Shown here piece after piece: positions 1,378 to 22,272 of a stretch of DNA of 40,412 bases. The DNA is taken from contig JANQHR010000002.1 in NCBI GenBank assembly GCA_028282585.1, positions 1 through 40,412 on the forward strand, written 5' to 3'. Position numbers and translations under genes: made by a program. Each line of letters begins with the position of its first letter. The stretch's first letter is position 1. The DNA comes from Bacteroidales bacterium (GTDB lineage: Bacteria > Bacteroidota > Bacteroidia > Bacteroidales > UBA12077). The notes below the pieces were generated by a model that was not told the origin of the DNA, did no database searches, and saw nothing but the letters and a program-made list of their open reading frames with translations.

Positions 1378-1422
1378 CAAACTTAACAAGATGTAAACGG
1401 AATTTTCTTGATGATCGTCAAG
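1378..1422 (-). promoter_or_regulatory. Crp/Fnr-type box (1407-1422) plus -7 box TAAGTTTG (1378-1385)
   Basis: CTTGATGATCGTCAAG, 21 nt from the -7 box. Confidence 0.85.
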
Positions 1423-1861
1423 ATTACTTTGATAGAATTGATTCATTTTTACAAGCTAGAAAAACAATAAATTGTGATATGCTCTTTGATTTTTAATAAG
1501 CAGATAATTGCAGTAAAGATGAAACCTGAATGTATTAACTTTCTTTGAAACATTACATAAATAGAAGTTATTATTTTAATACCGAATTCTTATTTGTTTC
1601 TACTGAATTTTTGATGAATTTGACCATAACTTTTTTGGGTATAGGAACTTTGAATTTTTTTTATTTACTTTAGTTAAAGTTTATTTGATTTTTTAAAAGT
1701 GTTTTTTTGATTATAAACTCACCTAAATGATTTGTAAGTATTTATCCTTTAACTGATTTATTTGAATTCAAAAATGCATTTGCTTCAATCGAAAGGGGAA
1801 ATGTATTAACAGGGGATGCTGAAAACCTTATAGAGTAGGCATTAATTTAATTTTTTATAAA

Positions 1862-2026
1862 ATGAAAAAGAAAAAAATGAATTCAAAGTTAACACTTAAA
1901 AAGCAAGTGATTAGCAATCTAAAAGAAGTAAAAGGAGGAAAACCATGGACATTCGGATGCACAATTGGATGCGAGATAAGTGTAGAAATAAATTGTCCGG
2001 GAACTTATCAAGGTGATTGTATCTAG
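1862..2026 (+). CDS. RiPP precursor, class I lanthipeptide-like, 54 aa
   Basis: MKKKKMNSKLTLKKQVISNLKEVKGG-KPWTFGCTIGCEISVEINCPGTYQGDCI: LxLxKx5L leader, GG, core with 4 Ser/Thr and 4 Cys. Confidence 0.8.
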   Translation: MKKKKMNSKLTLKKQVISNLKEVKGGKPWTFGCTIGCEISVEINCPGTYQGDCI

Positions 2027-2116
2027 TATTATCTGATTATTTTACGCTATTCGAGTATAATTAGCAATTATATTTTAAAGCTCGAAAGTAACAGATACTA
2101 AATTAAATCTATCTAA

Positions 2117-2264
2117 ATGAAAAAAAGAAAAGTATCAAAAAATAGGTTTAAATAAAGAAACTATTACCAATCTGAATTTAAAAAATATAAAAGGTGGAGC
2201 ACGTATATCTTTTATTGAAGAACGTTATACTGCAGAAACTGTATGTATTATATTGAAATGTTAG
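2117..2264 (+). pseudogene. Second RiPP precursor, frameshifted in a poly-A run
   Basis: ATG frame stops at 2153-2155; removing one A gives ...KIGLNKETITNLNLKNIKGG-ARISFIEERYTAETVCIILKC*. Confidence 0.7.
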
Positions 2265-2289
2265 ATACTAAGTATTTTTTAGATAATTT

Positions 2290-2315
2290 AAGGTGGGTAT
2301 TTGCCCACCTTTTTT
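2290..2315 (+). terminator. Intrinsic terminator after the precursor pair
   Basis: AAGGTGGGTA-TT-TGCCCACCTT followed by TTTT. Confidence 0.8.
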
Positions 2316-2352
2316 ATTAGAATCTAAAAAACCAACGTTTTGGAAGGTGGTG

Positions 2353-2444
2353 ACCTGCCTGCCCTCCTTCGGCGGGTTAACCGGCAAGGCAGGTGTGCGT
2401 TTGACTTTGTCGTTCTTTATCATTCCCGTGAAAGCGAGAATCTA
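2353..2444. repeat. REP-like palindromes
   Basis: ACCTGCCTGCC...GGCAAGGCAGGT with inner CTTCGG hairpin, then CATTCCCGTGAAAGCGAGAAT; CCTGCCTGC-like core recurs at ~38051 and ~40183. Confidence 0.55.
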
Positions 2445-2582
2445 TTTTCATAATTAAATAGAACTTGTTTGTAATATATTATAAACGCTTTTAGCGTATA
2501 CGGTTCTAAAAAGCCACTACCTTTGGCAGAGGTAATTTACTAATAAAATCTTATAAAGTACGTATTAAATTGTACCTTCTGA

Positions 2583-3837
2583 TTATTCATATTTCAAAAT
2601 TGTAGTAGGATTTACAGATGCATATTTTATGCTTTGAACAGAAACTACCAATAGTGTAATTAGCGATCCTAAAATGCCTGATAAAAGAAATACCCACCAA
2701 TAATTAATAAGGCTAATTTGTACAGAAAAGCTTTGTAACCATTTATTTATAATCCAATAGCTTATGGGCCATGCCAATATGGTTGAAACTCCAACCCATT
2801 TTAGATAGCTAAAACTTAGAAGCTTTACGATTGATTGAACAGATGCGCCTAAAACCTTTCTTACTCCTATTTCTTTAGTTTTTTGTTTTATAATAAATAA
2901 AGATAATCCCAACAATCCAAGGCATGCAATTAATATTGCTAATAAAGTTTAAATGATTAATTTGTCTTTTAAAAGGTCTTTCATTGCTGTATTGATTTTT
3001 CAGGAAATCAGACAAAAAGAAATAATTGAATTCGGCCTCAGGGAATTTATTGGTCCATAATTTTGAGATATGATTTATAGCCTCATTCGTTTGGTTAGGG
3101 TTAACTCTAATATAAATATATGATAGTTTCTCCGGAATTAATTTGAACACCAAAGGCTCAATTTCCTGATGTATCGATTTAAAATGAAAATCCTTAATAA
3201 TTCCTATTATTTCTCCTGTTTTATTATTTGAAGTATTTGAAACAAGCTCGATTTTTTCACCGATCGCTTCATCAGGATTTTGCCAGCCAAAGTTTTTAAG
3301 CGCTGTTTCATTTAAAATATAACGATTATGAGCGGTATCAGTATATTCTTTTTGGTAACTTCTTCCAGCTAATAAGTTCAGATTAAGGGTTTCGATAAAG
3401 TCATAATTAATGTTCATAAATATCATAAAATGGGCATCATCAGTTCCTAATTTCTTCATGCTGGCAGCTTCGTACATATGACTGGTAGTTAATTCAGCGG
3501 CACTCGTTGTATTTTTAAATATTATAGGATTAGATAATAGGTCATTTTTGAAAGAATCATAATTACGTTGTACTGTTTTGCTGTCAACAGGAACTACAAT
3601 CATGTTGTTCTTATTATAGCCAATATCTTTTTTCGCGATAAAATCAAGTTGAAAAAATATGAGCATTGAAAGTATTATAAAACTTATTGAAATAAAAAAC
3701 TGAAAGGTTACAAGGATCATTCTGAAAGAACCCTTTTTATCAGAAATACTTTTTCCAGTCTTTAGTATTTTTAAAGGATTAAAACTTGTTAAATAAAATG
3801 CAGGATATATATCTGATAAGATCCCGGTAAATATCAA
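2583..3837 (-). pseudogene. MacB/FtsX-like ABC permease, 5'-truncated and frameshifted
   Basis: Two ORFs join near 2950 (LVTFQF, IKDFHFKS, then KTKEIGVRKVLGAS); only the C-terminal half of the usual protein is present and there is no good start. Confidence 0.85.
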
Positions 3838-3879
3838 AAATGGATTTTCATAATCGTGTTTTAAAACTAATCAATTCTG

Positions 3880-3953
3880 CAAATAAATACTTTAAAACAG
3901 TTAATGTTCTTGACGATGGTCAAGTAATTTCGCTTAAAAACCGAATAATTTTG
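3880..3953. promoter_or_regulatory. Crp/Fnr-type box (3909-3924) with -7-like boxes on both sides
   Basis: CTTGACGATGGTCAAG; TAATTTTG at 3946 (+) and TTTATTTG at 3880-3887 (-), each 21 nt away. Confidence 0.8.
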
Positions 3954-3985
3954 CCTAACAAATAGAGACCAAAAAATAATATATC

Positions 3986-4843
3986 ATGAAAATAGATAAA
4001 GTTTTATTGGCGGGAGCAACAGGGTATTTGGGAAAGTATATTGCTCATGAGTTATTAGAAAAGGAGTATAATGTAAAATTGTTAGTGCGTAATTTAAATA
4101 AGGTCTCATTTGACCCTAAAAAATTTGAATTAATTCAGGCAGAAGTAACAAGACCCGAAACCTTAGAGGGAATTACCGGCAATATTGATATAGTAATTAG
4201 CACTATTGGTATCACCAAGCAAAAAGATGGCTATACCTATATGGACGTTGATTACCAGGCAAATCTGAATTTACTTGAAGAGGCTAAAAGATCAGGAGTT
4301 AGAAAATTCATTTACGTATCAGCTTTAAATGGTGATAAATTGAAATATTTGAAAATGGTCAAGGCAAAAGAAATGTTTGTTGAACAACTTAAAAATTCCG
4401 GACTGGATTATTGTATTGTTCGTCCGAATGGATTTTTCTCCGATATGACAGAGTTCTTAAAAATGGCAAAAAAAGGAACTGTTCATTTTTTTGGAAACGG
4501 AGACTACAAAATTAATCCTATTCATGGCGAAGATCTGGCAAGAGTCTGTGTAAATGCAATCTATAAATTAGAAAAAACTATTGAAATTGGTGGGCCCGAA
4601 ATATTTACACATAAAGATATTGCACGAATGGCTTTTCAGATTTTGGATAAAAAACCAAAATTTAAATATATGCCCGATGGTATAAGAAAACTTATTTTAT
4701 GGTTCACCAGAGCTTTTACTTCTTCCAAAACTTATGGTCCGATTGAATTTTTTATGACAGTGTTAGCTATGGATATGATTGCACCAACTTATGGAAATTA
4801 TAAATTGAAAACATTTTTTGAAGAAGAAAGACAAAATATTTAA
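3986..4843 (+). CDS. NAD(P)-binding atypical SDR oxidoreductase
   Basis: N-terminal GATGYLG Rossmann motif, IVRPNGFF. Confidence 0.9.
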   Translation: MKIDKVLLAGATGYLGKYIAHELLEKEYNVKLLVRNLNKVSFDPKKFELIQAEVTRPETLEGITGNIDIVISTIGITKQKDGYTYMDVDYQANLNLLEEAKRSGVRKFIYVSALNGDKLKYLKMVKAKEMFVEQLKNSGLDYCIVRPNGFFSDMTEFLKMAKKGTVHFFGNGDYKINPIHGEDLARVCVNAIYKLEKTIEIGGPEIFTHKDIARMAFQILDKKPKFKYMPDGIRKLILWFTRAFTSSKTYGPIEFFMTVLAMDMIAPTYGNYKLKTFFEEERQNI

Positions 4844-4864
4844 CAATTGATAAAGCGAGAATTT

Positions 4865-5395
4865 ATGTCACTAATAAGTTATATTAAAAGAGAAGAAGCA
4901 ACAGGTCAGATTGCTGATATTTATGATATGCTTGAACAGCGAATCAAAGTAATACCTAATGTGGTGCAATTTTATACTGCAAGTCCGGAATTATTCATAA
5001 AGTTTATGGGTTTTGTGGGCCATTACATAGATCATCCAACATTAAATGCTATAACTGTAGCGTACACAAGAATGCTTATTTCACATAAATCGAATGCCGA
5101 CTATTGTGTGAAATTGCAGTCTGGTATTTTAGAAAGCATGAAAGTAACTAAAGTAGACCTTGAATTAGCTAAAAAAGATTATACCAAAATAAATCTTGAT
5201 GAAAAGAATAAAGCGTTGGTTTGTTTTGTTTTGGACATGATGTTTGGTAAGCTGGAAAATGCGAAAGAAAGAATTAACCATCTAAAAGTCTTGGGTTGGG
5301 CTGATAAAGATATTTTTGAAGCCAGTGTGATGGGAGCTATCCAAAAAGGAATGGTAAATGTTATCAAAGCTTTTGAAGTACAACTTGATTTTTAA
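4865..5395 (+). CDS. AhpD/carboxymuconolactone decarboxylase-like protein
   Basis: EEATGQIADIY...VIPN...ADYC pattern with a single Cys; ATG 4865 preferred over TTG 4847. Confidence 0.65.
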   Translation: MSLISYIKREEATGQIADIYDMLEQRIKVIPNVVQFYTASPELFIKFMGFVGHYIDHPTLNAITVAYTRMLISHKSNADYCVKLQSGILESMKVTKVDLELAKKDYTKINLDEKNKALVCFVLDMMFGKLENAKERINHLKVLGWADKDIFEASVMGAIQKGMVNVIKAFEVQLDF

Positions 5396-5431
5396 CTTAT
5401 TGATAAAACCTTAAAAAGGGAAGGCTTTTAA

Positions 5432-6310
5432 ATGGATAATTTTATAAATGAAAAATTATGTAATTCCTGCAAACTTTGCATTGAAGTTTGTCCTTGCAAT
5501 GTAATCGGCGTAAATAAAACTAATAAGGTTCATTTTATTCCAGGAAGAGAATCGATTTGTATATACTGTGGTCAATGCATGGCAATTTGCGGAACAAAGT
5601 CAATTAAAATTGATGGCTATTCCTATGAAAAAGATTTCTTTGATCTTCCTAAAAATGACTTAAATTATACTGATTATATTAATTTTATTTCAAATAGAAG
5701 ATCCGTTAGAAATTTTACGGATAAGAGGATTTCTAATAAGTTAATAAATCAAATAATTGATTCGATTTCTTACGCTCCGTTTGGAGCATCGCCAGAAAAA
5801 ATGTGCATTACGGTTGTAAATAATCGAAAAAAAATTGAATTGGCATTACCATATATATCTAAATTCTTGGATGATATTGTTAAATGGGTTGAGAATCCAA
5901 TAATTTCATTTATTATAAAAAGAAAAGAAGGTATTGAGACTTATAATACTTTAAAAAATCACTTATACCCAATTTCCAAAAAAGGCAATTATAAATTAGC
6001 TGAGGGAGATAGAGTTACCAGGGGTGCGCCTTCTTTAATTATTTTTCATGCAAAAAAAGGAGCTGAGGCACATTCCGATAATTCCTTAATATACGCAACT
6101 TATGTAATGATGGCAGCTCATTCATTGGGGTTGGGATCAATGATGAACGGAATTGTTCCTTCAGCTATTAACAGAGTAAATGAGGTAAGAAATATTTTTC
6201 AAATTCCGAATGGGAATGACGCCGTAATATCTGTGAATATTGGTTATCCAAGGTACAAATATAAAAGAGGAATAAAAAGAAATAGCTTTAATGTAAATCT
6301 AGTCGAGTAA
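5432..6310 (+). CDS. Nitroreductase with N-terminal 2x[4Fe-4S] domain
   Basis: CxxCxxCxxxCP and CxxCxxCxxxC; RRSVRNF; AHSLGLGS. Confidence 0.9.
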   Translation: MDNFINEKLCNSCKLCIEVCPCNVIGVNKTNKVHFIPGRESICIYCGQCMAICGTKSIKIDGYSYEKDFFDLPKNDLNYTDYINFISNRRSVRNFTDKRISNKLINQIIDSISYAPFGASPEKMCITVVNNRKKIELALPYISKFLDDIVKWVENPIISFIIKRKEGIETYNTLKNHLYPISKKGNYKLAEGDRVTRGAPSLIIFHAKKGAEAHSDNSLIYATYVMMAAHSLGLGSMMNGIVPSAINRVNEVRNIFQIPNGNDAVISVNIGYPRYKYKRGIKRNSFNVNLVE

Positions 6311-6327
6311 TAAAACAAAAATTCAAT

Positions 6328-6873
6328 ATGGAAGATATAAAAATTGATAAAACCTGTGTACCATATCCTGGAAAAGGAATATATTGGTTGGTTGCCGCTC
6401 CCTATTTGATTGTTTTAATAGGAGTTACAGCATATTTGTGGAGTTATAATGTGCGTATTGCCATAACATATTTCTCTCTCTATTTAACTTCAACATTACT
6501 GCATGGTTATGTGTGTTCATTTAGTGAGTGTCCTTATAAAGGAACATTTTGTCCTGGAGCTTTCGGATGGTTTCCGGTGGGTAAAATAGCGGGTAAGTTA
6601 AATAAATCAAAAACAAAAAATGATAAGGTAGTGGGTATTCTATTTATGTTTATCATGTTATGTATTGTCGGTATATTCATATTACCACTATATTGGATAA
6701 GTAAACCGGGATTATTATTTAGTATTGCTTATGGAATTTTTATTATCATTCATTTTTTCACTTTTGTGATTTTTGTTTGCCCAAAATGCGCTGGCAGGAG
6801 ATATTGTCCGACTGCCAAACTCTCTAATACACTTAATAAGAAATTATTTAATAAAGAAATCTTGGAAATATGA
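6328..6873 (+). CDS. Four-TM membrane protein with paired Cys clusters
   Basis: Four hydrophobic segments; CSFSECPY..FCP and CPKC....CP. Confidence 0.75.
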   Translation: MEDIKIDKTCVPYPGKGIYWLVAAPYLIVLIGVTAYLWSYNVRIAITYFSLYLTSTLLHGYVCSFSECPYKGTFCPGAFGWFPVGKIAGKLNKSKTKNDKVVGILFMFIMLCIVGIFILPLYWISKPGLLFSIAYGIFIIIHFFTFVIFVCPKCAGRRYCPTAKLSNTLNKKLFNKEILEI

Positions 6874-6945: not shown

Positions 6946-7917
6946 TTATTTAAGGTATTTATTTTTTAGTTTTTCAATAAAATGAGCGGACATATAATAA
7001 ATGTTCATATTCCCATTATCATATCCTTTGTAATTTTTATGAACCGAATTGATATCTTCAAGAGGTTTAGTTTCCAAGTTATTAATAATTCGATTACTGG
7101 CAAAAATAAATATTGAACCATCCTGTGTTACAAACGGACACATTTCATGATTTTCCGAATTAATGGGTTCTCCCAAATTTTCAGGACTGGTCCATTTGTT
7201 ATTTATGTTAAAGCTGATGTATAGATCTCCACGGCCGAAGCTATCATCTCCATATCCCCTGAAAATAATAAAATCTTCATTGGGAGATATGTAAGGATCG
7301 CCCATATCGAAATTTACACCAAGCATTTCGGTAATATCAACTATTTTATAACCTGAATCTTCCTTAATGGCTTTAAAGATTTTGCTTTGCGACCAAATAT
7401 TGAAATATATGGTACCATCTCTGGTAACCGAACAGTAATATTCATTTAACTCTTCGCCAGTTAATATAATTCGTTTGGGTTCTAGCCATTGTCCATTTGC
7501 TTTTTCAACATACCAGTTCTTACTGTTTTTATTGTCAGGCATTGGTCGGCTCGAACTAAAATATATGCGTTTACCATCCGGAGAAAATAAGGGATCAAAA
7601 TCGGAATAAGTTCCTGAAAACGAAGCAATTTTTGGTCTGCTCCAGGTATTATCAGGTTGTAATTCGGTATAAGTAATATACGCATTGCCGGGTATATCTG
7701 TTGTATAATAAAACTCTGTACCATCTGGTGAAAACGTACCATTATATTCATCTGTTGGGCCTGCTATTAATTCAGGTGCTAAAAGTTGAGGTTCACTAAC
7801 TGGCTGTATACCAAAGAAAGGGTCGGTAAGTAATGATTTAGTAGTTTCGGCTTTTTCCGAGCAAGATAAAATTGCTAATAACGAAATTATGAAAAAAGAT
7901 AATTGTTGAAGTTTCAT
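6946..7917 (-). CDS. TolB-like PD40 beta-propeller lipoprotein
   Basis: Lipobox ILSC; repeated FSPDG motifs; PENLGEPINS. Confidence 0.85.
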   Translation of the reverse strand: MKLQQLSFFIISLLAILSCSEKAETTKSLLTDPFFGIQPVSEPQLLAPELIAGPTDEYNGTFSPDGTEFYYTTDIPGNAYITYTELQPDNTWSRPKIASFSGTYSDFDPLFSPDGKRIYFSSSRPMPDNKNSKNWYVEKANGQWLEPKRIILTGEELNEYYCSVTRDGTIYFNIWSQSKIFKAIKEDSGYKIVDITEMLGVNFDMGDPYISPNEDFIIFRGYGDDSFGRGDLYISFNINNKWTSPENLGEPINSENHEMCPFVTQDGSIFIFASNRIINNLETKPLEDINSVHKNYKGYDNGNMNIYYMSAHFIEKLKNKYLK

Positions 7918-7945: not shown

Positions 7946-8287
7946 TTATAAAAATGTTTTAAGAAAATCTCCATCAATAATTAATAGTTTAACACCTGAT
8001 TTAGTAACCGATCTATGTGAGTTTTAAACATTCGAAACTATATAGGTCATTCCGGTGGATCGTTTGAATTCATTTCCATCTCTCATTTCACTGGTAAATT
8101 CTCCTTACAGGCAATGTACAATATGTTCTTTCTTGCACCAATGATCAGCTATTTAACCTTCCGAATATTCAACCAATCTGATTCTTAGCCTATCAAATTG
8201 TTTTGTTTTCCAATAAGCAACACCCTTATGTTCTGTTTTAGGAATATCATCCCAATTTATGTTGTGAAAGAAAATATATAAACTCAC
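7946..8287 (-). pseudogene. DHCW-motif cupin family pseudogene
   Basis: Single frame: FHNINWDDIPKTEHKGVAYWKTKQFDRLRIRLVEYSEG*IADHWCKKEHIVHCL*GEFTSEMRDG...SNV*NSHRSVTKSGVKLLIIDGDFLKTFL; three in-frame TAA. Confidence 0.8.
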
Positions 8288-8318
8288 AAATTCATTCAAG
8301 ATAGATTAAACATAAAAT

Positions 8319-8363
8319 CAAAGCTAAATAATTGTTAAAGTGTTTTTCTTGATGATCATCAAG
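8319..8363 (-). promoter_or_regulatory. Crp/Fnr-type box (8348-8363) plus -7 box TAGCTTTG
   Basis: Perfect 22-bp palindrome TTTCTTGATGATCATCAAGAAA; 21-nt spacing toward the cupin pseudogene. Confidence 0.85.
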
Positions 8364-8455
8364 AAATTAGTACTATTGAGATTTTAAAATGCTGTATCTT
8401 TATTTAAAATATTTTATTAAACTAACTTCGTACAGGTAAAATAAAGTGATATCAA

Positions 8456-9289
8456 ATGATTCAAGATATATATCCACACCGTTTAAGAAATGATTACCTT
8501 GCAGATAGAATTATGGGAGAGGAGGATTTAATCCTGTATTTTAAAGATAATTCTTTTTTGTTAAAAACAAAGGGCGATGAGTATGAATTACCCCGGAAAA
8601 TGGATTTCAATAATACCTTAGAAAGAACAAGCAGTACCTTTTTATTTACGTTAAATGATATACCTTGTTTTTTGATTTGGGATAAACTCAACATAGAAAA
8701 GAGAGAATTTATTTATAAAGAAATAGATTTTTTCAGATATACCAATCAACAAGAAATTGCCTGGGCCAGTATGGTTGGTTTTCACTTGAAAAACTGGTAC
8801 TCACAAAACAAATTTTGTGGAAAATGCGGAACAAAAACTAAACAAAAATCAGATGAAAGAGCTCTTATGTGTCCAAATTGCAATTCGATTATTTATCCAA
8901 AAATTTCTCCGGCTGTTATTGTATCTATTGTTTGTAATGATAAGATTCTACTAGCGCGTGGAGCAAATTGGCCCGAAGACTGGTACTCTTGTGTAGCCGG
9001 ATATGTTGATGTTGGTGAGTCACTCGAAGAAGCTTTAATTCGAGAAGTAAAAGAGGAGGTAGGCGTTGATATTAAAAATATCCGTTATTATAAAAGCCAA
9101 CCCTGGCCTTTATCCGGTTCTATGATGATTGGCTTTGTTGCAGAAGCCAATGATATGCAACCTATTGTAATTGATGGAAAAGAAATAGTGGAAGCCAAAT
9201 GGTTTAATATATCTGACTTACCTAAATTTTCTTCTCGTATTAGTATAGCTGGGGAAATGATTGAGAAGTTCGAGAAAGGAGAATTATAA
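8456..9289 (+). CDS. nudC: NADH pyrophosphatase (NAD+ diphosphatase)
   Basis: Zn ribbon CGKCG...CPNC, Nudix box G..DVGESLEEALIREVKEEVG, SQPWP signature. Confidence 0.93.
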   Translation: MIQDIYPHRLRNDYLADRIMGEEDLILYFKDNSFLLKTKGDEYELPRKMDFNNTLERTSSTFLFTLNDIPCFLIWDKLNIEKREFIYKEIDFFRYTNQQEIAWASMVGFHLKNWYSQNKFCGKCGTKTKQKSDERALMCPNCNSIIYPKISPAVIVSIVCNDKILLARGANWPEDWYSCVAGYVDVGESLEEALIREVKEEVGVDIKNIRYYKSQPWPLSGSMMIGFVAEANDMQPIVIDGKEIVEAKWFNISDLPKFSSRISIAGEMIEKFEKGEL

Positions 9290-10447: not shown

Positions 10448-10611
10448 GTTGTCTTAATTAATAATGCATGGAAACAATTAATTAATTCCTGTTTAGTGAT
10501 TTGCTAAAGTAAAAATGTTCATCCAATATGGATTTTTATTCCTTAACCAACCTACAATTTTTCTAAATGAATTTTGTTGTTCTATTATTTTCCTACAATC
10601 ATTTTAGTTAT

Positions 10612-11272: not shown

Positions 11273-11318
11273 CTTGATGATCGTCAAGAAAGAAGATTTT
11301 AAAAAAGTATTATATTTG
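11273..11318 (+). promoter_or_regulatory. Crp/Fnr-type box (11273-11288) plus -7 box TATATTTG
   Basis: CTTGATGATCGTCAAG; 22-nt spacing. Confidence 0.8.
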
Positions 11319-13387: not shown

Positions 13388-13456
13388 TTCTATGGTTTTA
13401 TTGTAATATTATCTATGGGTAATTTGTTTTAAGTTTTATACCTATTAATTTTAAAA

Positions 13457-13957: not shown

Positions 13958-14023
13958 GAGCGTAGTTTTGAATTTTAAATTGCAAGTTAAGTATTTAACT
14001 TTAAAATTAAAGGTTTTGCTTAC

Positions 14024-14758: not shown

Positions 14759-14837
14759 ATCTAAGGATTTATATTAATAAATTTTGCAATTAAAATAAAT
14801 TATCTATCCGAATTATTTATTGACGATTGTTATTATT

Positions 14838-15404
14838 TTAAAAATGAATTTCGAATTCGCACCGGTCATCACCATTTAAAATGGATTTGTTTAATTTTAC
14901 CTGAACCGTTTTTTCGAAAGCAGCTGAGAAGAATTGTTTATTAAATTCAACAGAACAATGGCAATAAGTATCGGAATTAAATAATTCCTTTGATTTTTTA
15001 ACCTGTCCGCAAAAACACTTATTATGCATTGTTAAAAAAGTTTTTTCATCGAGAATTTCGTAGCCCAATTCATTATCTTTTACACCATAATTAATGAAAT
15101 TTTCTAAAAACTCTTCTAGAGAAGATGATTCATCCATTAATCGTTTAGCTATTTTTCTTTGACCGGCTCCACAGCATTTACTTCCGCAAGTTTGCATTAC
15201 ATTCATAGCTGTTTCTCTGCCCATTTCCAGTTCAAGCTTTTCAACCGCATTTCTCCACCAATCAGCTTTTTGTTCTGCTTTATATTGATCGTATTTGGGA
15301 GAATCTTCCATAATACTTTCAAACACCTTTTGTGACGTTTTTTTTTCAACGATTTTTGCAAATCGTCCTATGCGGCCTGTTTTTGGAATATTTTGTTTAT
15401 TCAT
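14838..15404 (-). CDS. Cys-rich DUF6144/V4R-like protein
   Basis: CGSKCC, CFC, YCHCS, SILNGDDRCEF. Confidence 0.7.
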   Translation of the reverse strand: MNKQNIPKTGRIGRFAKIVEKKTSQKVFESIMEDSPKYDQYKAEQKADWWRNAVEKLELEMGRETAMNVMQTCGSKCCGAGQRKIAKRLMDESSSLEEFLENFINYGVKDNELGYEILDEKTFLTMHNKCFCGQVKKSKELFNSDTYCHCSVEFNKQFFSAAFEKTVQVKLNKSILNGDDRCEFEIHF

Positions 15405-15492
15405 TTTTATTAAACTACTTATTATATTGTGTTTTGTGAAACAAAAAGAGTATTGGCATACCTTTTAATTCTCAATTAGTTAAAACTGTTGT

Positions 15493-15654
15493 TAGCATTT
15501 TTTCATGTTTACTTTTCCCAAAGGAGGATTTAAAACAATATAATGCAATGTAGCATTTTCATGATTTAATTCGGATAATTTTTCTGCGTTACCTTCATTA
15601 AATATTATACCCATTTTGGTAAAACCTGATTTTTCATTTATTTTATTAGTTCAT
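15493..15654 (-). pseudogene. SnoaL/NTF2-like gene remnant
   Basis: FNEGNAEKLSELNHENATLHYIVLNPPLGK resembles an NTF2-like N-terminus; frameshift right after ATG 15654 and early stop. Confidence 0.5.
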
Positions 15655-15658
15655 ATCA

Positions 15659-15703
15659 CAAAATTAAAAATGAACAATAGTTTAATTCTTGACGATTGTC
15701 AAG
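15659..15703 (-). promoter_or_regulatory. Crp/Fnr-type box (15688-15703) plus -7 box TAATTTTG
   Basis: CTTGACGATTGTCAAG; 21-nt spacing. Confidence 0.85.
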
Positions 15704-15872
15704 AGTCTAAATTAAATGTATAATCATACGTTATATTCATTGTCTGAGTTGATATCTGCAATAGGATGTTCAGTTATTTAAAGATCGTAATTTTCGCCAG
15801 GGTTATATTTAAACCCGATATTTGTAGTAAGTTAAATATAGTTATTCTTTAAAGGGTACGCTTTAAAAGGGC

Positions 15873-16466
15873 TTAATTTTTTTCTTTCATTAGTGCCCTT
15901 TTCCTTATTCTACTTAGGGATTCAGGTGTAACACCAAGATAAGAAGCAATATAATGTTGATTTATGTTTCTAAATAAATCGCTATTATGTTCAAAGAGTT
16001 CCAAAAATCTCTGTTCTGGAGATTTTGTTACAAATGATGAGATCATATTTTGAGCGGTAACGAGCTCATCTTCAACAGCGAGTTGAGCAATGTGTTTAAA
16101 TTTGAGGTGTTGTTTTATAAGTTGTCTTACAAGATTTTTATGAAATAATAATAAAGTGGTATCTTCAATAGCCTGATAATTCTCCTTAGCAGGTATTTCT
16201 TTTTGGTAACTTTCAATGGCTCGAAAAAATTTTCCTTTTGTATAAAAAAAAGCAGTTTTTTCGTTACCATTGTTATTATAAAATAATCGAACACAACCGT
16301 CAAGTACAAAATACATAGTATTGAAAATCTGACCAGCTTTAAAGATAATCTCGTTTTTTCTGCATATCTGAGCTGGAATTTGTTTTCTTATTTTCCATAA
16401 GTATTCAATCTCTTCATTGCTTAGTTCCGAATATTGATCCAGTAATTTAATGAACCTGTCAAACAT
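15873..16466 (-). CDS. Crp/Fnr family transcriptional regulator (paralog 1)
   Basis: cNMP-type domain YFVLDGCVRLFY; HTH IASYLGVTPESLSRIR. Confidence 0.93.
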   Translation of the reverse strand: MFDRFIKLLDQYSELSNEEIEYLWKIRKQIPAQICRKNEIIFKAGQIFNTMYFVLDGCVRLFYNNNGNEKTAFFYTKGKFFRAIESYQKEIPAKENYQAIEDTTLLLFHKNLVRQLIKQHLKFKHIAQLAVEDELVTAQNMISSFVTKSPEQRFLELFEHNSDLFRNINQHYIASYLGVTPESLSRIRKRALMKEKN

Positions 16467-16490
16467 TTACGTAACCTATTAATTCGGTGC

Positions 16491-16540
16491 TAAAACTATA
16501 ATTATTTTAGAATAGCTTTCTTGACAATCGTCAAGAAAGC
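16491..16540 (-). promoter_or_regulatory. Crp/Fnr-type box (16520-16535), probably autoregulatory
   Basis: GCTTTCTTGACAATCGTCAAGAAAGC; TAGTTTTA 21 nt downstream on the minus strand. Confidence 0.85.
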
Positions 16541-16553
16541 ACTATGTTTTAAA

Positions 16554-17543
16554 TCATTGTCCAAATAACTCCTGATAATTTCTATAATCAATTTTTTCAT
16601 GGTCTTCACTTGAAAACTCGGGGTGTTTATCAAGGTTCTTAGCAACAATAGGTGCAACTTTAGCCATTGCAAAATCACTTCCATATAAAATTCTTGATGC
16701 ACCAACAAATTGATTTAGAGTGTTAAGAGCATAAGCCCCTGAAGTTAAAGCCGTGTCATAGTACATATTTTTAAGCCTTTTTAGTCCTTTTTCAGGAGCT
16801 CCTTTAATCAAGAAATCATAAAGGGCTTTCATAACGGGTGTCCTTTTCCCTTTTTGACTATAACTTATCATAGCTAGTCGCCATCCCAAATAAGGAATGG
16901 TTCCACCGCCATGCGATAGTATAAATTTAATATTCTTATATTTTTCAAATGTTCCTTTATGAAGCATATTGGCAGCCATACGGGTCGTATCAAACGTAAC
17001 TTCAATTAATGAATTAGGAATTCCTTCTTCTTGAAGTTTAGGATCGTATTCATCAGCAGGATCGGTTGGATGTATATATACAACTGCTTTTCGTTTATTT
17101 AACTCTTCGAAAAACTTATCGTATTTTTCATCACCAAGGTATATCCCATCATAATGAGTCATTAAACAAACACCTTCTAACTTTAGATCATCCAGTGCAT
17201 ATTTTAATTCATCTATAGATGCTTTAATAAATCCTAGCGGAACACAGGCAAAAGCTCCAAATTTTTCAGGATATTTCTTTTTAAGTTTAGCCATATATCC
17301 GTTGCACCATCTGGATATTTTAATTGAAAACTCCAGATTTTCCTTAAAATAAACCCCGGGTGATGTAATCGAAACAATGGCTTTTTCAATACCAACTTTT
17401 TTCATAAATGAAAAAGAAGATTCAGGGTCCCATTTGGGAAAATCAACTCCCAATGAATGGTTAATATTGATTTCTTTTAACATCTCCACATATTCTTTTG
17501 GCACAATGTGGTGATGAACATCAATTTTCTTATTTGTTTTCAT
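16554..17543 (-). CDS. Amidohydrolase-2 family (6-methylsalicylate decarboxylase/ACMSD-like)
   Basis: IDVHHH, YIHP, SHGGG, YYDTA, YGSDF. Confidence 0.9.
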   Translation of the reverse strand: MKTNKKIDVHHHIVPKEYVEMLKEININHSLGVDFPKWDPESSFSFMKKVGIEKAIVSITSPGVYFKENLEFSIKISRWCNGYMAKLKKKYPEKFGAFACVPLGFIKASIDELKYALDDLKLEGVCLMTHYDGIYLGDEKYDKFFEELNKRKAVVYIHPTDPADEYDPKLQEEGIPNSLIEVTFDTTRMAANMLHKGTFEKYKNIKFILSHGGGTIPYLGWRLAMISYSQKGKRTPVMKALYDFLIKGAPEKGLKRLKNMYYDTALTSGAYALNTLNQFVGASRILYGSDFAMAKVAPIVAKNLDKHPEFSSEDHEKIDYRNYQELFGQ

Positions 17544-17567
17544 GACTTTTGATTTTTAATTCATGTT

Positions 17568-17627
17568 CAAAGTAAGGGATGGACAGTTTCTTTTTAATCA
17601 TCCTTTGGGATGATTTAGGGGATGATT
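17568..17627 (-). promoter_or_regulatory. Triple GGATGA operator plus -7 box TTACTTTG
   Basis: AATCATCC-tttg-GGATGATT-tagg-GGATGATT; 20 nt to the -7 box. Confidence 0.8.
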
Positions 17628-17652
17628 CACGCTTTGTAGTGAGAAATGAAAT

Positions 17653-17697
17653 CTTGACGAATGTCAAGGGTTTTGATTAACTGGTTGTTTAATTTTG
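17653..17697 (+). promoter_or_regulatory. Crp/Fnr-type box (17653-17668) plus -7 box TAATTTTG
   Basis: CTTGACGAATGTCAAG; 21-nt spacing. Confidence 0.85.
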
Positions 17698-17781
17698 TTC
17701 GATCGTCAGTTAAGATATTAAAAAGTATAATTTTAAAAATAGAGAATCAAATAGATTAATTTTTAACTTAAAAATATAATT

Positions 17782-18912
17782 ATGAAAACTGGATATTTTC
17801 TTGTCTTTATGATTGCTTTTATTACTTTATCCGCAAAAGGTATTGTAATAAAAAATGAAAGAAACGAAAAGGTTCTTGATCAACTAGTTGAAATCAATAA
17901 CGTACCTGGCCTAAACTTCTCAATCATTTATAAAAATGGTAAACAATTCAACTATTCTTCAGGATATGCTGATACAACAGAAAAAATTCCTTTAAATGAG
18001 CATCATGTATTATTTTCCGGAAGTATTGGAAAAACATATGCTGTGGCTGTTTTGATGCAATTGATAGATGAGGGAAGAATTGAACTTGACAAGCCTTTCA
18101 TGTATTATTTTCCGAAAAATAATTGGTTAAAAAACTTACCGGATATTGAAGATATTACTGTAGAAATGCTCTTAAATCATACCAGTGGATTACCTCGTTA
18201 TATTAATAACGAAGAGGTATGGAAAACGGTAAGAGAAAACCCGGATAAAGTATGGACGCACAAAGAAAGATTGTCTTATGCATTTGATATGGAACCAGCA
18301 CATAAACCCGGAAAAGGTTGGGCCTACTCAGATACTAATTATTTATTAATAGGTATGTTAATAGAACAGATAACAGGCTCAGAATATTATAGTGTAGTAA
18401 AATCAAGAATATTGGATCCAGCTCAATTAACCCAAACACATCCGGCAATAAGAAGAGATATTCGGAATTTACCAATTGGGTACTCAAACCTTGATGATTT
18501 TTTTAATATGCCCGGAATTGTTGTAGTTAATGGTGAGTATATTTTTAATCCTCAAATGGAAAATACTGGTGGGGGATTTGCTTCAACAACATCGGATTTA
18601 GCGAAATGGGCCAAGTATTATTTTGAGAGTGAGTTTTTTTCAAAAGAACTTGGTGAAAAAATTGTGACTTCTACAAAACAAGGAGCAGAAATAAGCGATA
18701 ATATGGCATGTGGAATGGGAAGCTTTATTTTTTATACAAGCCAGGGAAAAGCTTATGGTCATACAGGCTTTATACCTGGTTTTAATGCAATATTCGCATA
18801 TTTTCCTGATGAACAGTTAGCAGTTGCCATGCAAATTAATTGCGATTATGCAAGAAGTAATATGAGCTTAATGGATTATCTGCTTTTTATTTTGAATAAC
18901 TTAAGTATTTAA
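17782..18912 (+). CDS. Secreted serine hydrolase (beta-lactamase/D-Ala-D-Ala carboxypeptidase fold)
   Basis: Signal peptide; SIGK, LLNHTSG, YSDTNY, GHTG. Confidence 0.9.
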   Translation: MKTGYFLVFMIAFITLSAKGIVIKNERNEKVLDQLVEINNVPGLNFSIIYKNGKQFNYSSGYADTTEKIPLNEHHVLFSGSIGKTYAVAVLMQLIDEGRIELDKPFMYYFPKNNWLKNLPDIEDITVEMLLNHTSGLPRYINNEEVWKTVRENPDKVWTHKERLSYAFDMEPAHKPGKGWAYSDTNYLLIGMLIEQITGSEYYSVVKSRILDPAQLTQTHPAIRRDIRNLPIGYSNLDDFFNMPGIVVVNGEYIFNPQMENTGGGFASTTSDLAKWAKYYFESEFFSKELGEKIVTSTKQGAEISDNMACGMGSFIFYTSQGKAYGHTGFIPGFNAIFAYFPDEQLAVAMQINCDYARSNMSLMDYLLFILNNLSI

Positions 18913-18947
18913 ACAAAAATTGTAGAGGAAAAGGTATTAGTTTTGAA

Positions 18948-19328
18948 ATGGTTAAAAAAATGAAAAAGATAGTTCTGATTAATAACTTCAAACTTATTGC
19001 TTTACCCATCCGCTCTACTTTGAAACATAAATTTCCTTTAATACCAATGGAAGAATATATTCTTTGGAAAAATGATAAAGATAAAGCATTTGATCCGTGT
19101 ATCAGGGTTTATGTTAAACAAGGGGGAAGTATTGTAAACGTTTGTAATAACTCAATGGAAATAAAAGGCAAGGTTGGAGAATAGGAAAACCGGACCGGTT
19201 TAAAATTTCGCGGAAGCGGAAATTATATAGTAGAAGTTGTATTATCTGTTGTTAATATTAATAAAGAATTGAATATAGGAACTTATACAGAACCAAATGT
19301 TTGGATGATTCATAATATCGATAATTAG
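18948..19328 (+). pseudogene. Hypothetical gene with an internal TAG
   Basis: Frame stays open 47 codons past TAG 19182-19184 (ENRTGLKFRGSGNYIVEVVLS...) to TAG 19328. Confidence 0.45.
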
Positions 19329-19367
19329 ACTAATAAAAAAACCAAAAACATTATTAATCTTTAAAAT

Positions 19368-19898
19368 ATGTTTGATTTAAGAATAGCTTCTTTAAATAGA
19401 GAAATGCAAGAATTAAAATTAAAAAGCAGTAGTTTATTAAAAGAAGTGTTAACCATGTATCCGGAAATTGAAAATGGCGATTATTCCTGTTCTAATAATT
19501 TTAAAGATTTTCCAAGTATATCAGAAGATATTTTGATTCGATTAGAGGCAATTGGAATTAAAAACACATTGCAATTGTATGAGGAAGTTTTAACTCCGGC
19601 TTGCCGTCTTGAATTCTCGATAAAAACCGGGATTAGTGTTGATAAAGTTTTGATGCTTTGTCAATTGGCAGATATTTCCAGAATTAAATGTATTAATCAT
19701 AACTTGGCTTTTATCCTTTTTAAAGCAGGCTATACAAATACAAAGGAAGTTTCTAATGCAGAACCGGCACATTTGTATCTGAACATAACAAAGCATCTTA
19801 ACGAAATAGAAATTTCAGAGTTAAATTTAGGGGTAAACCAGGTAAAGTTGATCATTGAATCAGCGAAATGTTTATCGCTTGATATAGAATATAATTAG
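19368..19898 (+). CDS. DUF4332-like helix-hairpin-helix protein
   Basis: LEAIGIKNT...TGIS...LADISRIKCI...AGY pattern. Confidence 0.7.
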   Translation: MFDLRIASLNREMQELKLKSSSLLKEVLTMYPEIENGDYSCSNNFKDFPSISEDILIRLEAIGIKNTLQLYEEVLTPACRLEFSIKTGISVDKVLMLCQLADISRIKCINHNLAFILFKAGYTNTKEVSNAEPAHLYLNITKHLNEIEISELNLGVNQVKLIIESAKCLSLDIEYN

Positions 19899-19912
19899 AA
19901 AATAATTGTAAT

Positions 19913-20836
19913 ATGAGAAGATTTTTAATGCTTATGGGATGTTTCGTGTTGATCTTAAACGCAAAAGGACAAACCCGGATTTCTGATTCGGAACAATTAG
20001 TTTGTCCGGAATTAAGCGCTAATTTATTTGCACCGGGAGATGTATCTACTAAGGCAGCGTATGAATTTGGATCTACTCTTTCTAAAAATTATCAGTAAAT
20101 TTATTATGGTGTAAGACTTAATAAAGACTGGAAGGCTGAAATACGTTACTCTTGTAAAGTAAAAGATAAATGGAAAAAACCGGAAAGACTTACTTTAAAT
20201 GAAAGATATACGTATAATGATCCATACCTGAATGAAACTGAGGATAAGCTATTTTTTGTTTCAAACATGCCACTTGAAAAATTTGGTGAACCAAAAGATT
20301 TTGATATTTGGTATATGCAAAAAACAGCAAAAGGTTGGTCTGCCCCGAAGCATACAGGTGATGTTATTAATTCCGACAAGGATGAGTTTTATGTATCCAT
20401 CTCGAATAATGGTACAGTTTATTTTGTTTCGAACAGACACACGTTGGGAGAAAATGATCAATGGGATTTTGATATTTACTATTCGGTAATAAAAGATGGT
20501 AAATATCGGGAACCGGTGCGTTTAAATTTAACAATAAATAGTGTCTATTTTGAATGTGATCCCTTTATTGCTCCGGATGAAAGCTATTTAGTTTTTAGCT
20601 CATCGCGCCCTGGAGGATTTGGCGAAGGGGATTTGTACATCTGTTTTAAAGAAAAAGACAATAAATGGTCGAAACCAATTAATATGGGCGAAAAGATTAA
20701 TACCGAGTTTCATGAATTCTGTCCTCAGGTAACCAAAGATGGATTAAAATTCTTATATACGAGTAAAGGCGATATTTACTACATAAATACCCTTATATTA
20801 GAAGGAATAAAGAACTTACATTATGAAACAAAATAA
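19913..20836 (+). pseudogene. TolB-like PD40 protein with one nonsense codon
   Basis: ORFs 19913-20098 and 20267-20836 share a frame, split only by TAA 20096-20098; signal peptide; PFIAPDES, GDLY; similar to 6946-7917. Confidence 0.85.
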
Positions 20837-21299
20837 TATTAGCCATATTAAGAAAAGGGAAATTCAGGCGCCAATTGTAACTTCTATTGTTAAAGAGTTT
20901 ATTAAAGAATTGGGGAAAGAAAAAGCACTCGCTATTTTATCAAGAGTAATTGAAAAGGATGCTGTTAAATCGGGACAGGAACTTGCCCGGCAATTTAATG
21001 GAAATTCCATGAAGGAATTGGTGACCTTAATTAAGGAGATCTGGTGTAAAGATGAAGCAATGGAGATTGAAGTATTGAGGGAAACTGACTCGGAATTTCA
21101 TTTTAACGTAATCAGGTGTAAATATGCGGAGATATATAATGAGTTGGGAGAGATGGAGCTGGGTAAATGTCTTTCTTGTGACAGAGATTTTCCTTTTAAT
21201 AAAGGATTTAATCCTGAAATTAAACTGAAAAGGTCAAAAACTATAATGGAAGGAATGGACATCTGCGATTTCAGATATACTAAAATTTCTCTTGTTTAG
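20823..21299 (+). CDS. L-2-amino-thiazoline-4-carboxylic acid hydrolase-like (V4R) protein
   Basis: RCKYAE, LSCDRD, RSKTIMEG...CDFRY. Confidence 0.85.
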   Translation: MKQNNISHIKKREIQAPIVTSIVKEFIKELGKEKALAILSRVIEKDAVKSGQELARQFNGNSMKELVTLIKEIWCKDEAMEIEVLRETDSEFHFNVIRCKYAEIYNELGEMELGKCLSCDRDFPFNKGFNPEIKLKRSKTIMEGMDICDFRYTKISLV

Positions 21300-21323
21300 T
21301 TGATTCAAAGAAACTTAAATATT

Positions 21324-21368
21324 CTTATCAATAGTCAATTTATATTATCAATATATCATTTAAACTTG
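21324..21368 (+). promoter_or_regulatory. Degenerate Crp/Fnr box plus -7-like TAAACTTG
   Basis: CTTATCAATAGTCAAT; 21-nt spacing. Confidence 0.5.
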
Positions 21369-21373
21369 TAATG

Positions 21374-21450
21374 TTAGTTCTAAAGAGAGAGTGTAAAATT
21401 ATTCTTTACCCCTAGAAGTTTAATCGTAATGCACTCTCTTTTATCTTTTG
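21374..21450 (+). ncRNA. Candidate small RNA 1
   Basis: AGAGAGTGTA (21386-95) pairs with TGCACTCTCT (21430-39), then a U-rich tail; C-rich loop; no ORF. Confidence 0.35.
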
Positions 21451-21460
21451 ATTAATACTT

Positions 21461-21504
21461 CTTGATTTTCGTCAAGTGTAAAATGGTCATGATTTGTAAT
21501 TTTA
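21461..21504 (+). promoter_or_regulatory. Crp/Fnr-type box (21461-21476) plus -7-like TAATTTTA
   Basis: CTTGATTTTCGTCAAG; 20-nt spacing; no ORF downstream. Confidence 0.7.
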
Positions 21505-21509
21505 CCATG

Positions 21510-21740
21510 ATTGTTTAAAGGTTGTTCGCAAGTAGGCAGGAAATCAAAATACTGCAAATAATGTTTCTCGATATAATTTAAAGCACAAACTACGTTATTT
21601 CCTACTCATTGTGACCTAAAAGATTGACAGGAAATTGTAAAGGAGAATTCGAGAAAAATAATAGAAAATAGCTTTGAGTTAAGTTAATGTCTTCTTGCAT
21701 AGGAAAATTACCTAAAATTAAAATTCCTGCGCAGTTTTAG
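21510..21740 (+). ncRNA. Candidate small RNA 2
   Basis: ORF-free; AGGAAA x3 with complementary TTCCT x2 forming stems. Confidence 0.3.
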
Positions 21741-21779
21741 TTTACAAAATTTCATAAACTTGGGTTTGATGATTGTGTG

Positions 21780-22211
21780 TTAGTTTTTTATTTTCAATAA
21801 GTTAATTCCCAGCCAGTCTAATGCAGTTTCTTTTGTATTGAAAAGCTCCATTTCCAGGTTTTTTATTGACTTAAATTCCAATTTAAGTAATGTAGCATTA
21901 ACAACTTGTTTTGGCGAAGTAACCACATCGGCAATTTTAGCATATTCAAAATCCTTAATAATCTTCATTAGAGGATTTGATAGGGTATAGATCTCTCTGG
22001 GTTTTATTTTAGTATTTGATTGTCTAAAATCGAATAGTACCTTTATTTCCTGAATAAAATTAATCGGGTGATCATTAATTATCTCCAGAAAACCAAGCAG
22101 GTCTGAAATATAAATTTCGCCTTTGAACACAACTTCTAAATATCTTTCAGATTTGTTGAATGATATTCTGCACTTTTCGTTAGTATTATAATTACTTTTT
22201 AGCATTTTCAT
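21780..22211 (-). CDS. STAS/SEC14 (SpoIIAA-like) domain protein
   Basis: VLFDFR, KIADVV, ELFNTKETALDWL. Confidence 0.75.
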   Translation of the reverse strand: MKMLKSNYNTNEKCRISFNKSERYLEVVFKGEIYISDLLGFLEIINDHPINFIQEIKVLFDFRQSNTKIKPREIYTLSNPLMKIIKDFEYAKIADVVTSPKQVVNATLLKLEFKSIKNLEMELFNTKETALDWLGINLLKIKN

Positions 22212-22227
22212 TTGATTTAATGGAGTG

Positions 22228-22272
22228 CTAAACTATACTTAATCATAATTTCAAATATTGACGATCATCAAT
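22228..22272 (-). promoter_or_regulatory. Crp/Fnr-type box (22257-22272) plus -7-like TAGTTTAG
   Basis: ATTGACGATCATCAAT; 21-nt spacing. Confidence 0.75.

Follow-up and report, generated by a model that had tools for sequence, protein, structure and literature searches.

The contig JANQHR010000002.1 (C123) of a Bacteroidales bacterium of the UBA12077 group (assembly GCA_028282585.1, 4.89 Mb in 173 contigs) carries, among genes for redox enzymes, hydrolases and transferases, two genes for short Crp/Fnr-type regulators (P0001, or Crp1, and P0002, or Crp2) and nine copies of a 16-bp palindrome (Table 1). The window that we analyzed is this whole contig of 40.4 kb (40,412 nucleotides); the assembly has 32% G+C, a completeness of 98% and a contamination of 3.9%, and the nearest named relatives of the proteins encoded in the window belong to the Marinilabiliales and other marine Bacteroidota. 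The palindromes, hereafter boxes, have the consensus ttCTTGAyGATCrTCAAGaa and stand at a nearly fixed distance upstream of octamers of the type TAnnTTTG, which in the available text of PMC7641319 is the '-7 box', a core promoter element of Bacteroides and Flavobacterium. As judged from their sequence, geometry and conservation, the boxes are real, conserved putative operators of a previously undescribed Crp/Fnr subfamily, in a predicted switch of conventional type.

The exact pattern TTGAYNNNNRTCAA (TTGAY-N4-RTCAA) occurred 10 times in the window, whereas 100 dinucleotide-preserving shuffles averaged 0.44 copies and never exceeded 4. Nine of these copies are the boxes listed in Table 1, and the tenth, at 29197, lies inside an RsgA-like gene without an octamer. 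All eight copies of the stricter pattern CTTGAYNNNNRTCAAG (CTTGAY-N4-RTCAAG) found in the whole assembly were on contig C123, as were 10 of the 66 matches to a looser pattern. We then scored the genome with a position weight matrix (PWM) built from the nine boxes, which themselves scored 17.9–28.8 when each was left out in turn; off the contig, two sites reached at least 18 and none reached 20, and the nine boxes were the nine top matches of the genome to the matrix built from them. By a simple estimate, the chance that nine uniformly placed sites would fall within 20.9 kb of 4.89 Mb is ~1e-18. A preliminary description of this DNA had named ten boxes, of which nine held up; the tenth, CTTATCAATAGTCAAT at 21324, scored 8.2 bits, within the background, and because 190 off-contig positions scored at least 10 bits, the sequence alone gives it no support and we rejected it. 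We also rejected a site at 35538 (13.5 bits), with its octamer at 29 nt. The same description had taken the targets to be scattered as in a dispersed regulon, a view that the distribution of boxes does not bear out: the regulon is a local island, comprising contig C123 and two boxes beside a third Crp paralogue on contig C59, and is neither global nor dispersed.

The spacer between box and octamer was 21 nt at seven of the nine boxes, 22 nt at 11273 and 20 nt at 21461, and our recount reproduced the eight cases at 21 nt, one at 22 nt and one at 20 nt previously reported, with the weak site at 21324 supplying the eighth. Six of the octamers at these ten sites matched TAnnTTTG exactly and four were near matches (TAGTTTTA, TAATTTTA, TAGTTTAG and TAAACTTG). 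The spacers themselves were unrelated in sequence among the box promoters, with the box and the octamer alone being kept. A genome-wide motif scan with a histogram of distances, which had been proposed as a check, revealed a spacing peak that belongs to the local regulon: sites scoring at least 12 and followed by an exact octamer were found on contig C123 at 21 nt (five), 22 nt (one) and 29 nt (one), and off this contig C59:2869 (22 nt) was the sole match at 19–23 nt. As an independent set we used 44 boxes scoring at least 14 in loci of other genomes, 12 of which had been fetched blind to context. Exact octamers followed these boxes at 21 nt in 16 cases, at 22 nt in one, and elsewhere in the range of 10–34 nt in two; when octamers matching at least 5 of 6 positions were counted, 30 were at 21 nt and at most five at any other distance. 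These counts support a spacing that is phase-locked in this genome and in others.

For comparisons between genomes we denote this genome G000 and used a genus sample of 37 genomes, which includes the congeners G004 and G046, together with a scan of one genome per species and with wider samples (401 phylum genomes, G000 included, and 300 other genomes of the order); relatives of P0001 in the phylum were accepted at E ≤ 1e-35, with at most 8 candidates scored per genome. A cassette consisting of a crp gene, a box placed 21 nt from an octamer and a reductase gene was present in nine genomes of other groups, six of them from Prolixibacteraceae, Myroides, a Bacteroidia metagenome-assembled genome, Neptunitalea, Carboxylicivirga and Mesonia, and the other three being G068, G383 and G563. 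The one-genome-per-species scan returned seven loci with a relative of P0001, and six of the seven had a box. At five of these six loci no more than about 20 nt separate the box from the crp stop codon, and at L015 the box is ~520 nt downstream; at all six it stands exactly 21 nt from a TAnnTTTG-type octamer, beyond which a protein of ~285 amino acids with an NAD(P)-binding fold is encoded. The phylum and order samples provided the further cassettes L036, L046 and L037, the last having a degenerate box that nevertheless keeps the 21-nt spacing. The window's own reductase, whose nearest solved relatives are NDUFA9-type atypical short-chain dehydrogenases/reductases (SDRs; E 2e-17), is 49–58% identical to the cassette reductases, including the SDRs encoded behind crp orthologues in seven other genomes.

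The subfamily is rare, with a match in 7 of the 401 phylum genomes including G000 (among the best 8 or fewer candidates of each genome), and relatives of at least 39% identity occur within the genus sample only in G000 (three copies), G004 (eight, one with a stop codon) and G046 (two). Strict boxes number 8 in G000, 13 in G004 and 2 in G046, both of the exact boxes of G046 lying within 11 kb of a crp gene, and 0–4 in the other genomes of the genus scan; the regulon is enlarged in two of the 37 genomes. The 300 other genomes of the order had 0–6 strict boxes each. Among 12 single strict hits fetched from the order sample, five fell inside the EF-Tu gene, one was a true cassette and six had no such context, so the low counts are largely coding coincidences and pattern counts overstate the spread of the operator. 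The EF-Tu coding matches (L048, L049, L051, L052 and L053) read CTTGACGA[AT]GGTCAAG. An excess of forward over control pattern counts was discarded as evidence, single hits being a poor proxy for a regulon.

Closer relatives show how the boxed genes are shared. In G004, genes for a CMD-like protein and an Fe-S nitroreductase lie in a box-preceded operon and are 73–77% identical to those of the window; genes for a cupin, a metallophosphoesterase and an ATC-hydrolase-like protein also recur behind boxes there, and the other boxed genes encode an EamA exporter, metallo-beta-lactamase-fold (MBL) hydrolases, a UDP-glycosyltransferase and an adenosine deaminase. The targets are thus not wholly unrelated, as had first been thought, since the reductase is a conserved ancestral target and five gene types recur behind boxes of G004. 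That a regulator is boxed at its own gene holds for P0001 and for its G004 orthologue, which has ATTGACGAATGTTAAT, 21 nt and TAGCTTTA at the place of promoter 6, and fails for P0002, which has no box and lies behind an ATCATCC/GGATGAT promoter. In the intergenic region at nudC, what G000 and G004 have in common is mainly the box, which lies 92–93 nt upstream of the nudC start in both and ~94 nt upstream, in diverged form, in G046; it may act on nudC too, from a distal position. In three genomes (window 8348-8456; L027 1787-1895; L044 8333-8443) the nudC box is kept despite a differing gene on the opposite side.

Together, these comparisons support the boxes as conserved sites that are linked to the neighbouring Crp/Fnr-type genes. 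It is very improbable that an unrelated DNA-binding protein reads them and that the crp genes are mere neighbours. The island does encode another regulator, a MalT-like protein (25946-28594), but that protein has a separate candidate motif; moreover, box and crp stop codon are adjacent in nine genomes of other groups, box number tracks crp copy number within the genus, and the TTGA half-site fits the ExxSR recognition helix of the neighbouring regulators, which is the rule known from FNR.

The island itself is variable. The corresponding island of G046 has no counterpart of window positions ~14128-22105 (8 kb, from the metallophosphoesterase gene to a gene for a 143-aa protein, with crp1 and five boxes) and also lacks the reductase (4040-4792) and nitroreductase (5395-6262) segments. 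Two sites have decayed there, the box of promoter 9 having lost its right half and the homologue of promoter 4 having an 8-nt deletion in its spacer, and the box of promoter 1 (leave-one-out PWM score 28.8) is kept. Many copies in a short stretch, in an island rearranged between genomes with breakpoints near boxes, might suggest that the palindromes are MITE-like (miniature inverted-repeat transposable element) repeats or promoter cassettes, or else hairpin terminators, that serve no regulator. We give this idea almost no credence, because spacers and flanks are unrelated in sequence, with box, octamer and distance alone kept, because a perfect 16-bp palindrome leaves no loop and is followed by no T-run, and because the boxes lie upstream of genes and not behind them, except where crp precedes.

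The barrel domain PF00027 was the sole Pfam domain above threshold in the two regulators of the window (52.1 bits in P0001 and 54.0 bits in P0002; cut-off 27.5), HTH_Crp_2 being unreported for P0001 and reaching 20.5 bits in P0002 against a cut-off of 27. An AlphaFold2 model (38-sequence alignment; mean predicted local distance difference test score, pLDDT, 92.6) contains the barrel, a long helix and a helix-turn-helix (HTH), and has no strand after the recognition helix (181–196), indicating a wingless version of the HTH. In Foldseek comparisons with Mycobacterium tuberculosis CRP bound to DNA and with Aliivibrio fischeri holo-FNR, the model had TM-scores normalised to the query (TMq) of 0.82–0.85. 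As the preliminary description had pointed out, an ExxSR helix is present in both regulators (ESLSR and ETLSR), the box has the form TTGA-N6-TCAA, and an FNR-type cysteine cluster is absent: the only cysteines are at positions 35 and 58 of P0001 and 55 and 198 of P0002, two scattered residues per protein and therefore no cluster. The NCBIfam FNR model gave 25.2 and 32.6 bits (cut-off 228), and the CRP model gave 32.1 bits for P0002 (cut-off 266), with P0001 unlisted. In CRP, the loop that binds the phosphate of cAMP contains an Arg-Ser pair; in an alignment of P0001 to the cAMP-binding Thermus thermophilus protein 4ev0, this pair aligns to Lys-Glu-Asn. These features support regarding the regulators as neither FNR nor CRP proper, and their named relatives, proteins of ~190–200 amino acids, are all annotated only as 'Crp/Fnr family transcriptional regulator'.

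In an alignment of 24 subfamily members the motif PE[ST]LSRI[RK]xR was kept in nearly all, and the members split into two sensor types that are 24–32% identical to each other in the pocket region versus 55–66% in the HTH. P0001 belongs to type A, as do its orthologue in G004 and every reductase-linked protein; P0002 and the G046 copies are of type B, together with the third paralogue, that of contig C59 (42% identical to P0001, with the helix ESLCR). Because G046 has canonical boxes and proteins of type B only, both types probably read the same box.

To place the boxes relative to the core promoter, we examined 1379 intergenic octamers and found a peak of the trinucleotide TTG at spacers of 19–20 nt (64 and 81 counts, versus ~20–40 elsewhere), which was visible only after masking long open reading frames (ORFs) and coding regions and is the predicted -33 element of this genome. 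At spacers of 18–21 nt, TTG is absent from all nine box promoters, because the 3′ edge of the box fills that place. The octamer begins 29 nt downstream of the centre of the box, which itself lies ~8 bp upstream of the -33 centre; class II sites in Escherichia coli lie ~9 bp upstream of the -35 centre (-41.5 versus -35). The class II-like position that had been proposed agrees with this geometry: the box extends over the position that the -33 TTG would take, in the way that class II sites extend over the -35 element, so that the upstream element is overlapped or replaced from about one helical turn upstream, and the spacing to the core is fixed.

We favor the explanation, with a probability of roughly 0.65, that dimers of the short, wingless Crp/Fnr subfamily activate the box promoters from this class II-like position. 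The palindromes would be operators for dimers of a Bacteroidota-specific subfamily of ~195 amino acids, of which three paralogues are encoded in this genome, and the bound dimer would replace the missing -33 contact and recruit RNA polymerase, in the manner of FNR and CRP at promoters of class II. The trigger would be a small-molecule ligand in the barrel domain, neither cAMP nor an Fe-S cluster. The ancestral unit would have been crp, box and NDUFA9/NmrA-like reductase gene, in this order; roughly a dozen promoters, of genes for redox enzymes, hydrolases, methyl- or acetyltransferases and exporters, would since have acquired the box in this genome and in one congener. The set of boxed genes, gathered in one variable island, suggests a chemical-stress or xenobiotic (redox) response.

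The same proteins at the same boxes might instead be repressors, with the dimer blocking the contact of sigma region 4 at -33 until a ligand releases it. The box does overlap the -33 position, regulators beside detoxification genes are often repressors, and with six of ten octamers of full consensus the core promoters might work unaided. Repression nevertheless seems unlikely to us: repressors need no fixed phase, and yet 21 nt is kept at 30 of the 44 boxes elsewhere and 7 of the 9 here; the -33 TTG that is present in the genome's ordinary promoters is found at none of the box promoters; and the distance of the box centre from the -33 centre resembles that of class II activation.

Several observations weigh against activation by these proteins as the explanation. 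The position over the -33 region would also suit a repressor, P0002 is not under a box, and the three paralogues have nearly the same recognition helix, so the sequences do not allow the boxes to be assigned to one of them. Among the seven loci of the one-genome-per-species scan, L019 had no box; among six loci of the phylum sample, L039 and L040 had a relative without a box and L038 a box without an octamer. Several promoters are followed by long leaders (208–254 nt), by a gene remnant (8153-8299) or by no ORF (21461), and some boxes may therefore be relics. Finally, the assembly is a metagenome bin in 173 contigs, so confinement to contig C123 is valid only for assembled DNA. A look-up of sequencing runs containing this stretch listed a single DNA run, possibly the source of the bin, and no RNA run.

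The genes behind the nine promoters are listed in Table 1, together with the other features of the window. The aminotransferase behind promoter 1 had NCBIfam matches that were all under the curated cut-offs, and we place its start at 1332 because a longer ORF would start upstream of the promoter. Directly behind promoter 3 lies a remnant of a cupin-like gene that is intact behind a box in G004 (117 aa; the remnant is 53% identical over 47 aa). The genes behind promoter 5 probably form one operon, judging by strand and spacing. The hydrolase behind promoter 7 was under every NCBIfam beta-lactamase cut-off, and the SpoIIAA/STAS-like match of the 143-aa protein behind promoter 9 was below threshold (E 0.005, 17.9 bits versus a cut-off of 25). 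Downstream of promoter 8 no ORF of at least 20 aa was found on the + strand, and this promoter, which faces the 3′ end of the gene for the 143-aa protein, may be a relic or may give rise to a short or antisense RNA (21461-21780, +). No RNA family was found by Rfam in the long leaders.

Table 1. Box promoters, genes and other features of the window (distances are from box to octamer).
Feature	Position	Strand	Details
Promoter 1	1378-1422	-	box CTTGACGATCATCAAG (1407-1422), 21 nt, octamer TAAGTTTG (1378-1385)
Class I/II aminotransferase	115-1332	-	first gene behind promoter 1; PF00155, 119.5 bits
Promoter 2	3909-3953	+	box CTTGACGATGGTCAAG from 3909, 21 nt, TAATTTTG; aligned with G046 copy
Operon behind promoter 2	3986-6873	+	assigned by Pfam, NCBIfam
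NDUFA9/NmrA-like atypical SDR (reductase)	3986-4843	+	
CMD/AhpD-like protein	4847-5395	+	
4Fe-4S nitroreductase	5432-6310	+	
Membrane protein	6328-6873	+	
Promoter 3	8319-8363	-	perfect palindrome CTTGATGATCATCAAG from 8348, 21 nt, TAGCTTTG
Cupin-like gene remnant	8153-8299	-	48 codons, directly behind promoter 3
PD40 gene	6946-7917		farther downstream of promoter 3
nudC (NAD+ diphosphatase)	8456-9289		divergent from promoter 3; over NCBIfam cut-off; box 8348 is 92 nt upstream
Promoter 4	11273-11318	+	box CTTGATGATCGTCAAG from 11273, 22 nt, TATATTTG
S-adenosylmethionine-dependent methyltransferase	11527-12300	+	257 aa; PF08241; 208-nt leader after promoter 4
Promoter 5	15659-15703	-	box CTTGACAATCGTCAAG from 15688, 21 nt, TAATTTTG; 169 nt downstream of crp1 stop
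Genes behind promoter 5	12584-15404	-	assigned by Pfam
DUF6144	14838-15404	-	
Metallophosphoesterase	14024-14758	-	54% identical to that in the G004 crp1 operon
Two GNAT acetyltransferases	13457-13957, 12584-13387	-	
Promoter 6 (crp1's own)	16491-16535	-	box CTTGACGATTGTCAAG from 16520, 21 nt, TAGTTTTA
P0001 (Crp1, sensor type A)	15873-16466	-	197 aa; cNMP (cyclic nucleotide)-type barrel, long C-helix, HTH with ESLSR, no wing
Promoter 7	17653-17697	+	box CTTGACGAATGTCAAG from 17653, 21 nt, TAATTTTG
Serine beta-lactamase-fold hydrolase	17782-18912	+	first behind promoter 7; PF00144, 169.8 bits
Weak site (rejected as box)	21324-21368	+	CTTATCAATAGTCAAT, 21 nt to TAAACTTG; PWM 8.2 bits
Promoter 8	21461-21504	+	box CTTGATTTTCGTCAAG from 21461, 20 nt, TAATTTTA
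Promoter 9	22228-22272	-	box ATTGATGATCGTCAAT from 22257, 21 nt, TAGTTTAG
143-aa protein	21780-22211	-	behind promoter 9; sub-threshold SpoIIAA/STAS-like PF11964
P0002 (Crp2, sensor type B)	23320-23916	-	198 aa; ETLSR helix; without own box
ATCATCC-N5/6-ATCATCC-N4-GGATGAT arrays	17597-17632, 24364-24398, 25889-25922	-	middle copy of third array ATCATTCC
Single copy of second motif	12528-12536		
MalT-like STAND/LuxR protein	25946-28594		882 aa
DUF805b RNA	1809-1841	+	Rfam, 39.9 bits (gathering 35.6)
54-codon ORF	1862-2026	+	directly 3′ of DUF805b RNA
Two overlapping ORFs	2583-3837	-	FtsX C-terminal and MacB periplasmic domains

A second motif, AAATCATCC, was present in 7 copies in the window (1.0 expected). 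Its ATCATCC arrays, which we take to resemble MalT boxes, end ~20 nt from an octamer-like word and are conserved in G046; they precede an amidohydrolase gene running into crp1, a 65-codon ORF (24115-24312) together with P0002, and FMN-reductase/STAS genes. Given the array before the P0002 operon and the neighbouring MalT-like gene, P0002 is probably controlled by that system and not by a box of its own.

Crp paralogues elsewhere in the assembly have surroundings of a similar kind. On contig C59 (496-7906) the gene of the paralogue comes first in an operon that is conserved in G046 (L045), ahead of ankyrin-like, acyltransferase, GNAT, pentapeptide, glyoxalase-fold and rubrerythrin-like genes, and two weaker boxes stand 21 and 22 nt from exact octamers before genes for an MBL-fold hydrolase and a methyltransferase; no overlap of contig ends that would join C59 to C123 was found. 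Contig C38 (10084-16259) encodes another Crp paralogue (10233-10799) with its own box variant, TTTGAY-N4-RTCAAA, of which four copies lie 21–22 nt from octamer-like words and a fifth (10801) has none; this set is a predicted further Crp regulon, likewise local and of the same geometry. Around the other 14 genes with cNMP domains, no perfect 6+6 palindrome accompanied by an exact octamer was found in a strict search, the C38 set having come from looser inspection.

Some side observations concern the region between promoters 1 and 2. A DUF805b RNA lies directly 5′ of a 54-codon ORF that encodes a leader rich in Lys, with KGG at its end, and a tail rich in Cys; NCBIfam gave no hit for the ORF, G046 has the stretch at 85% identity, and the product is presumably akin to Bacteroidota GG-leader peptide precursors. 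The two overlapping ORFs with FtsX and MacB domains look like a frameshifted, 5′-truncated ABC permease gene.

A broader scheme can be drawn from these circuits, although we consider it doubtful as a whole. Sensors of types A and B would merge different chemical signals on one box, and a gene would enter the regulon whenever it gained a box placed 21 nt before a -7 octamer, a plug-in rule that would account for the growth and shrinkage of the island through indels between congeners. The MalT-like STAND regulator may sit above both Crp types, with candidate boxes before the P0002 operon and before the amidohydrolase-crp1 run. If the scheme is true, the equal centre-to-octamer distance at the C38 paralogue would make this a general activator geometry for the unusual sigma factor of Bacteroidota.

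Among known systems, FNR at class II promoters of E. coli shares with the predicted switch the TTGA half-site, the N6 spacing, the ExxSR helix and the fixed-phase overlap of the upstream element, its box being TTGAT-N4-ATCAA centred near -41.5, and the overall fold of A. fischeri holo-FNR is alike (TMq 0.83). The regulators of the window differ from FNR in having no N-terminal Cys cluster and no beta-hairpin wing and in being ~50 residues shorter; their promoters are of the Bacteroidota -33/-7 type and their regulon is local. E. coli CRP has the same architecture of barrel, C-helix and HTH and a class II-like position, but the half-site here is TTGA and not GTGA, and the Arg-Ser of the cAMP loop is absent. 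The closest solved sequence is PDB 3dn7 (E 6e-15), a 194-aa 'cyclic nucleotide binding regulatory protein' of Cytophaga hutchinsonii from structural genomics with no function given, which is also among the best fold matches and is short like P0001; it differs in its low identity over the aligned stretch and in its helix, EYLSE instead of ESLSR.

Two Bacteroidota proteins of the Crp family have been described in greater depth. According to the available text of PMC3878776, BT4338 (Cur/MalR) of Bacteroides thetaiotaomicron has a predicted palindromic site (wwwTATGTTnTAnAACATAwww), predicted autoregulation, an unknown metabolite signal and a predicted regulon of global sugar catabolism; the box here is CTTGAyGATCrTCAAG and the regulon is one island. 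CrpPg of Porphyromonas gingivalis does not bind cAMP and is reported to be ligand-independent and proposed to be a repressor, and the available text of PMC12040651 gives no box or spacing like the window's. In full-text literature searches and in the available text of PMC8510549, PMC3878776, PMC12040651, PMC3590769 and PMC7641319 we found no published operator or targets of the subfamily; the supplements of the first two may hold further Bacteroidota Crp motifs.

For the subfamily, these results provide a precise putative operator, a conserved first target and an exact geometry (box end, 21 nt, TAnnTTTG). The crp-box-reductase cassette is present in cultivable Myroides, Mesonia and Neptunitalea, and the placement of activators at Bacteroidota -33/-7 promoters, the ligand of this sensor class and the local expansion of a regulon are now testable. 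Inducible promoters for Bacteroidota might also be designed with the help of the spacing rule.

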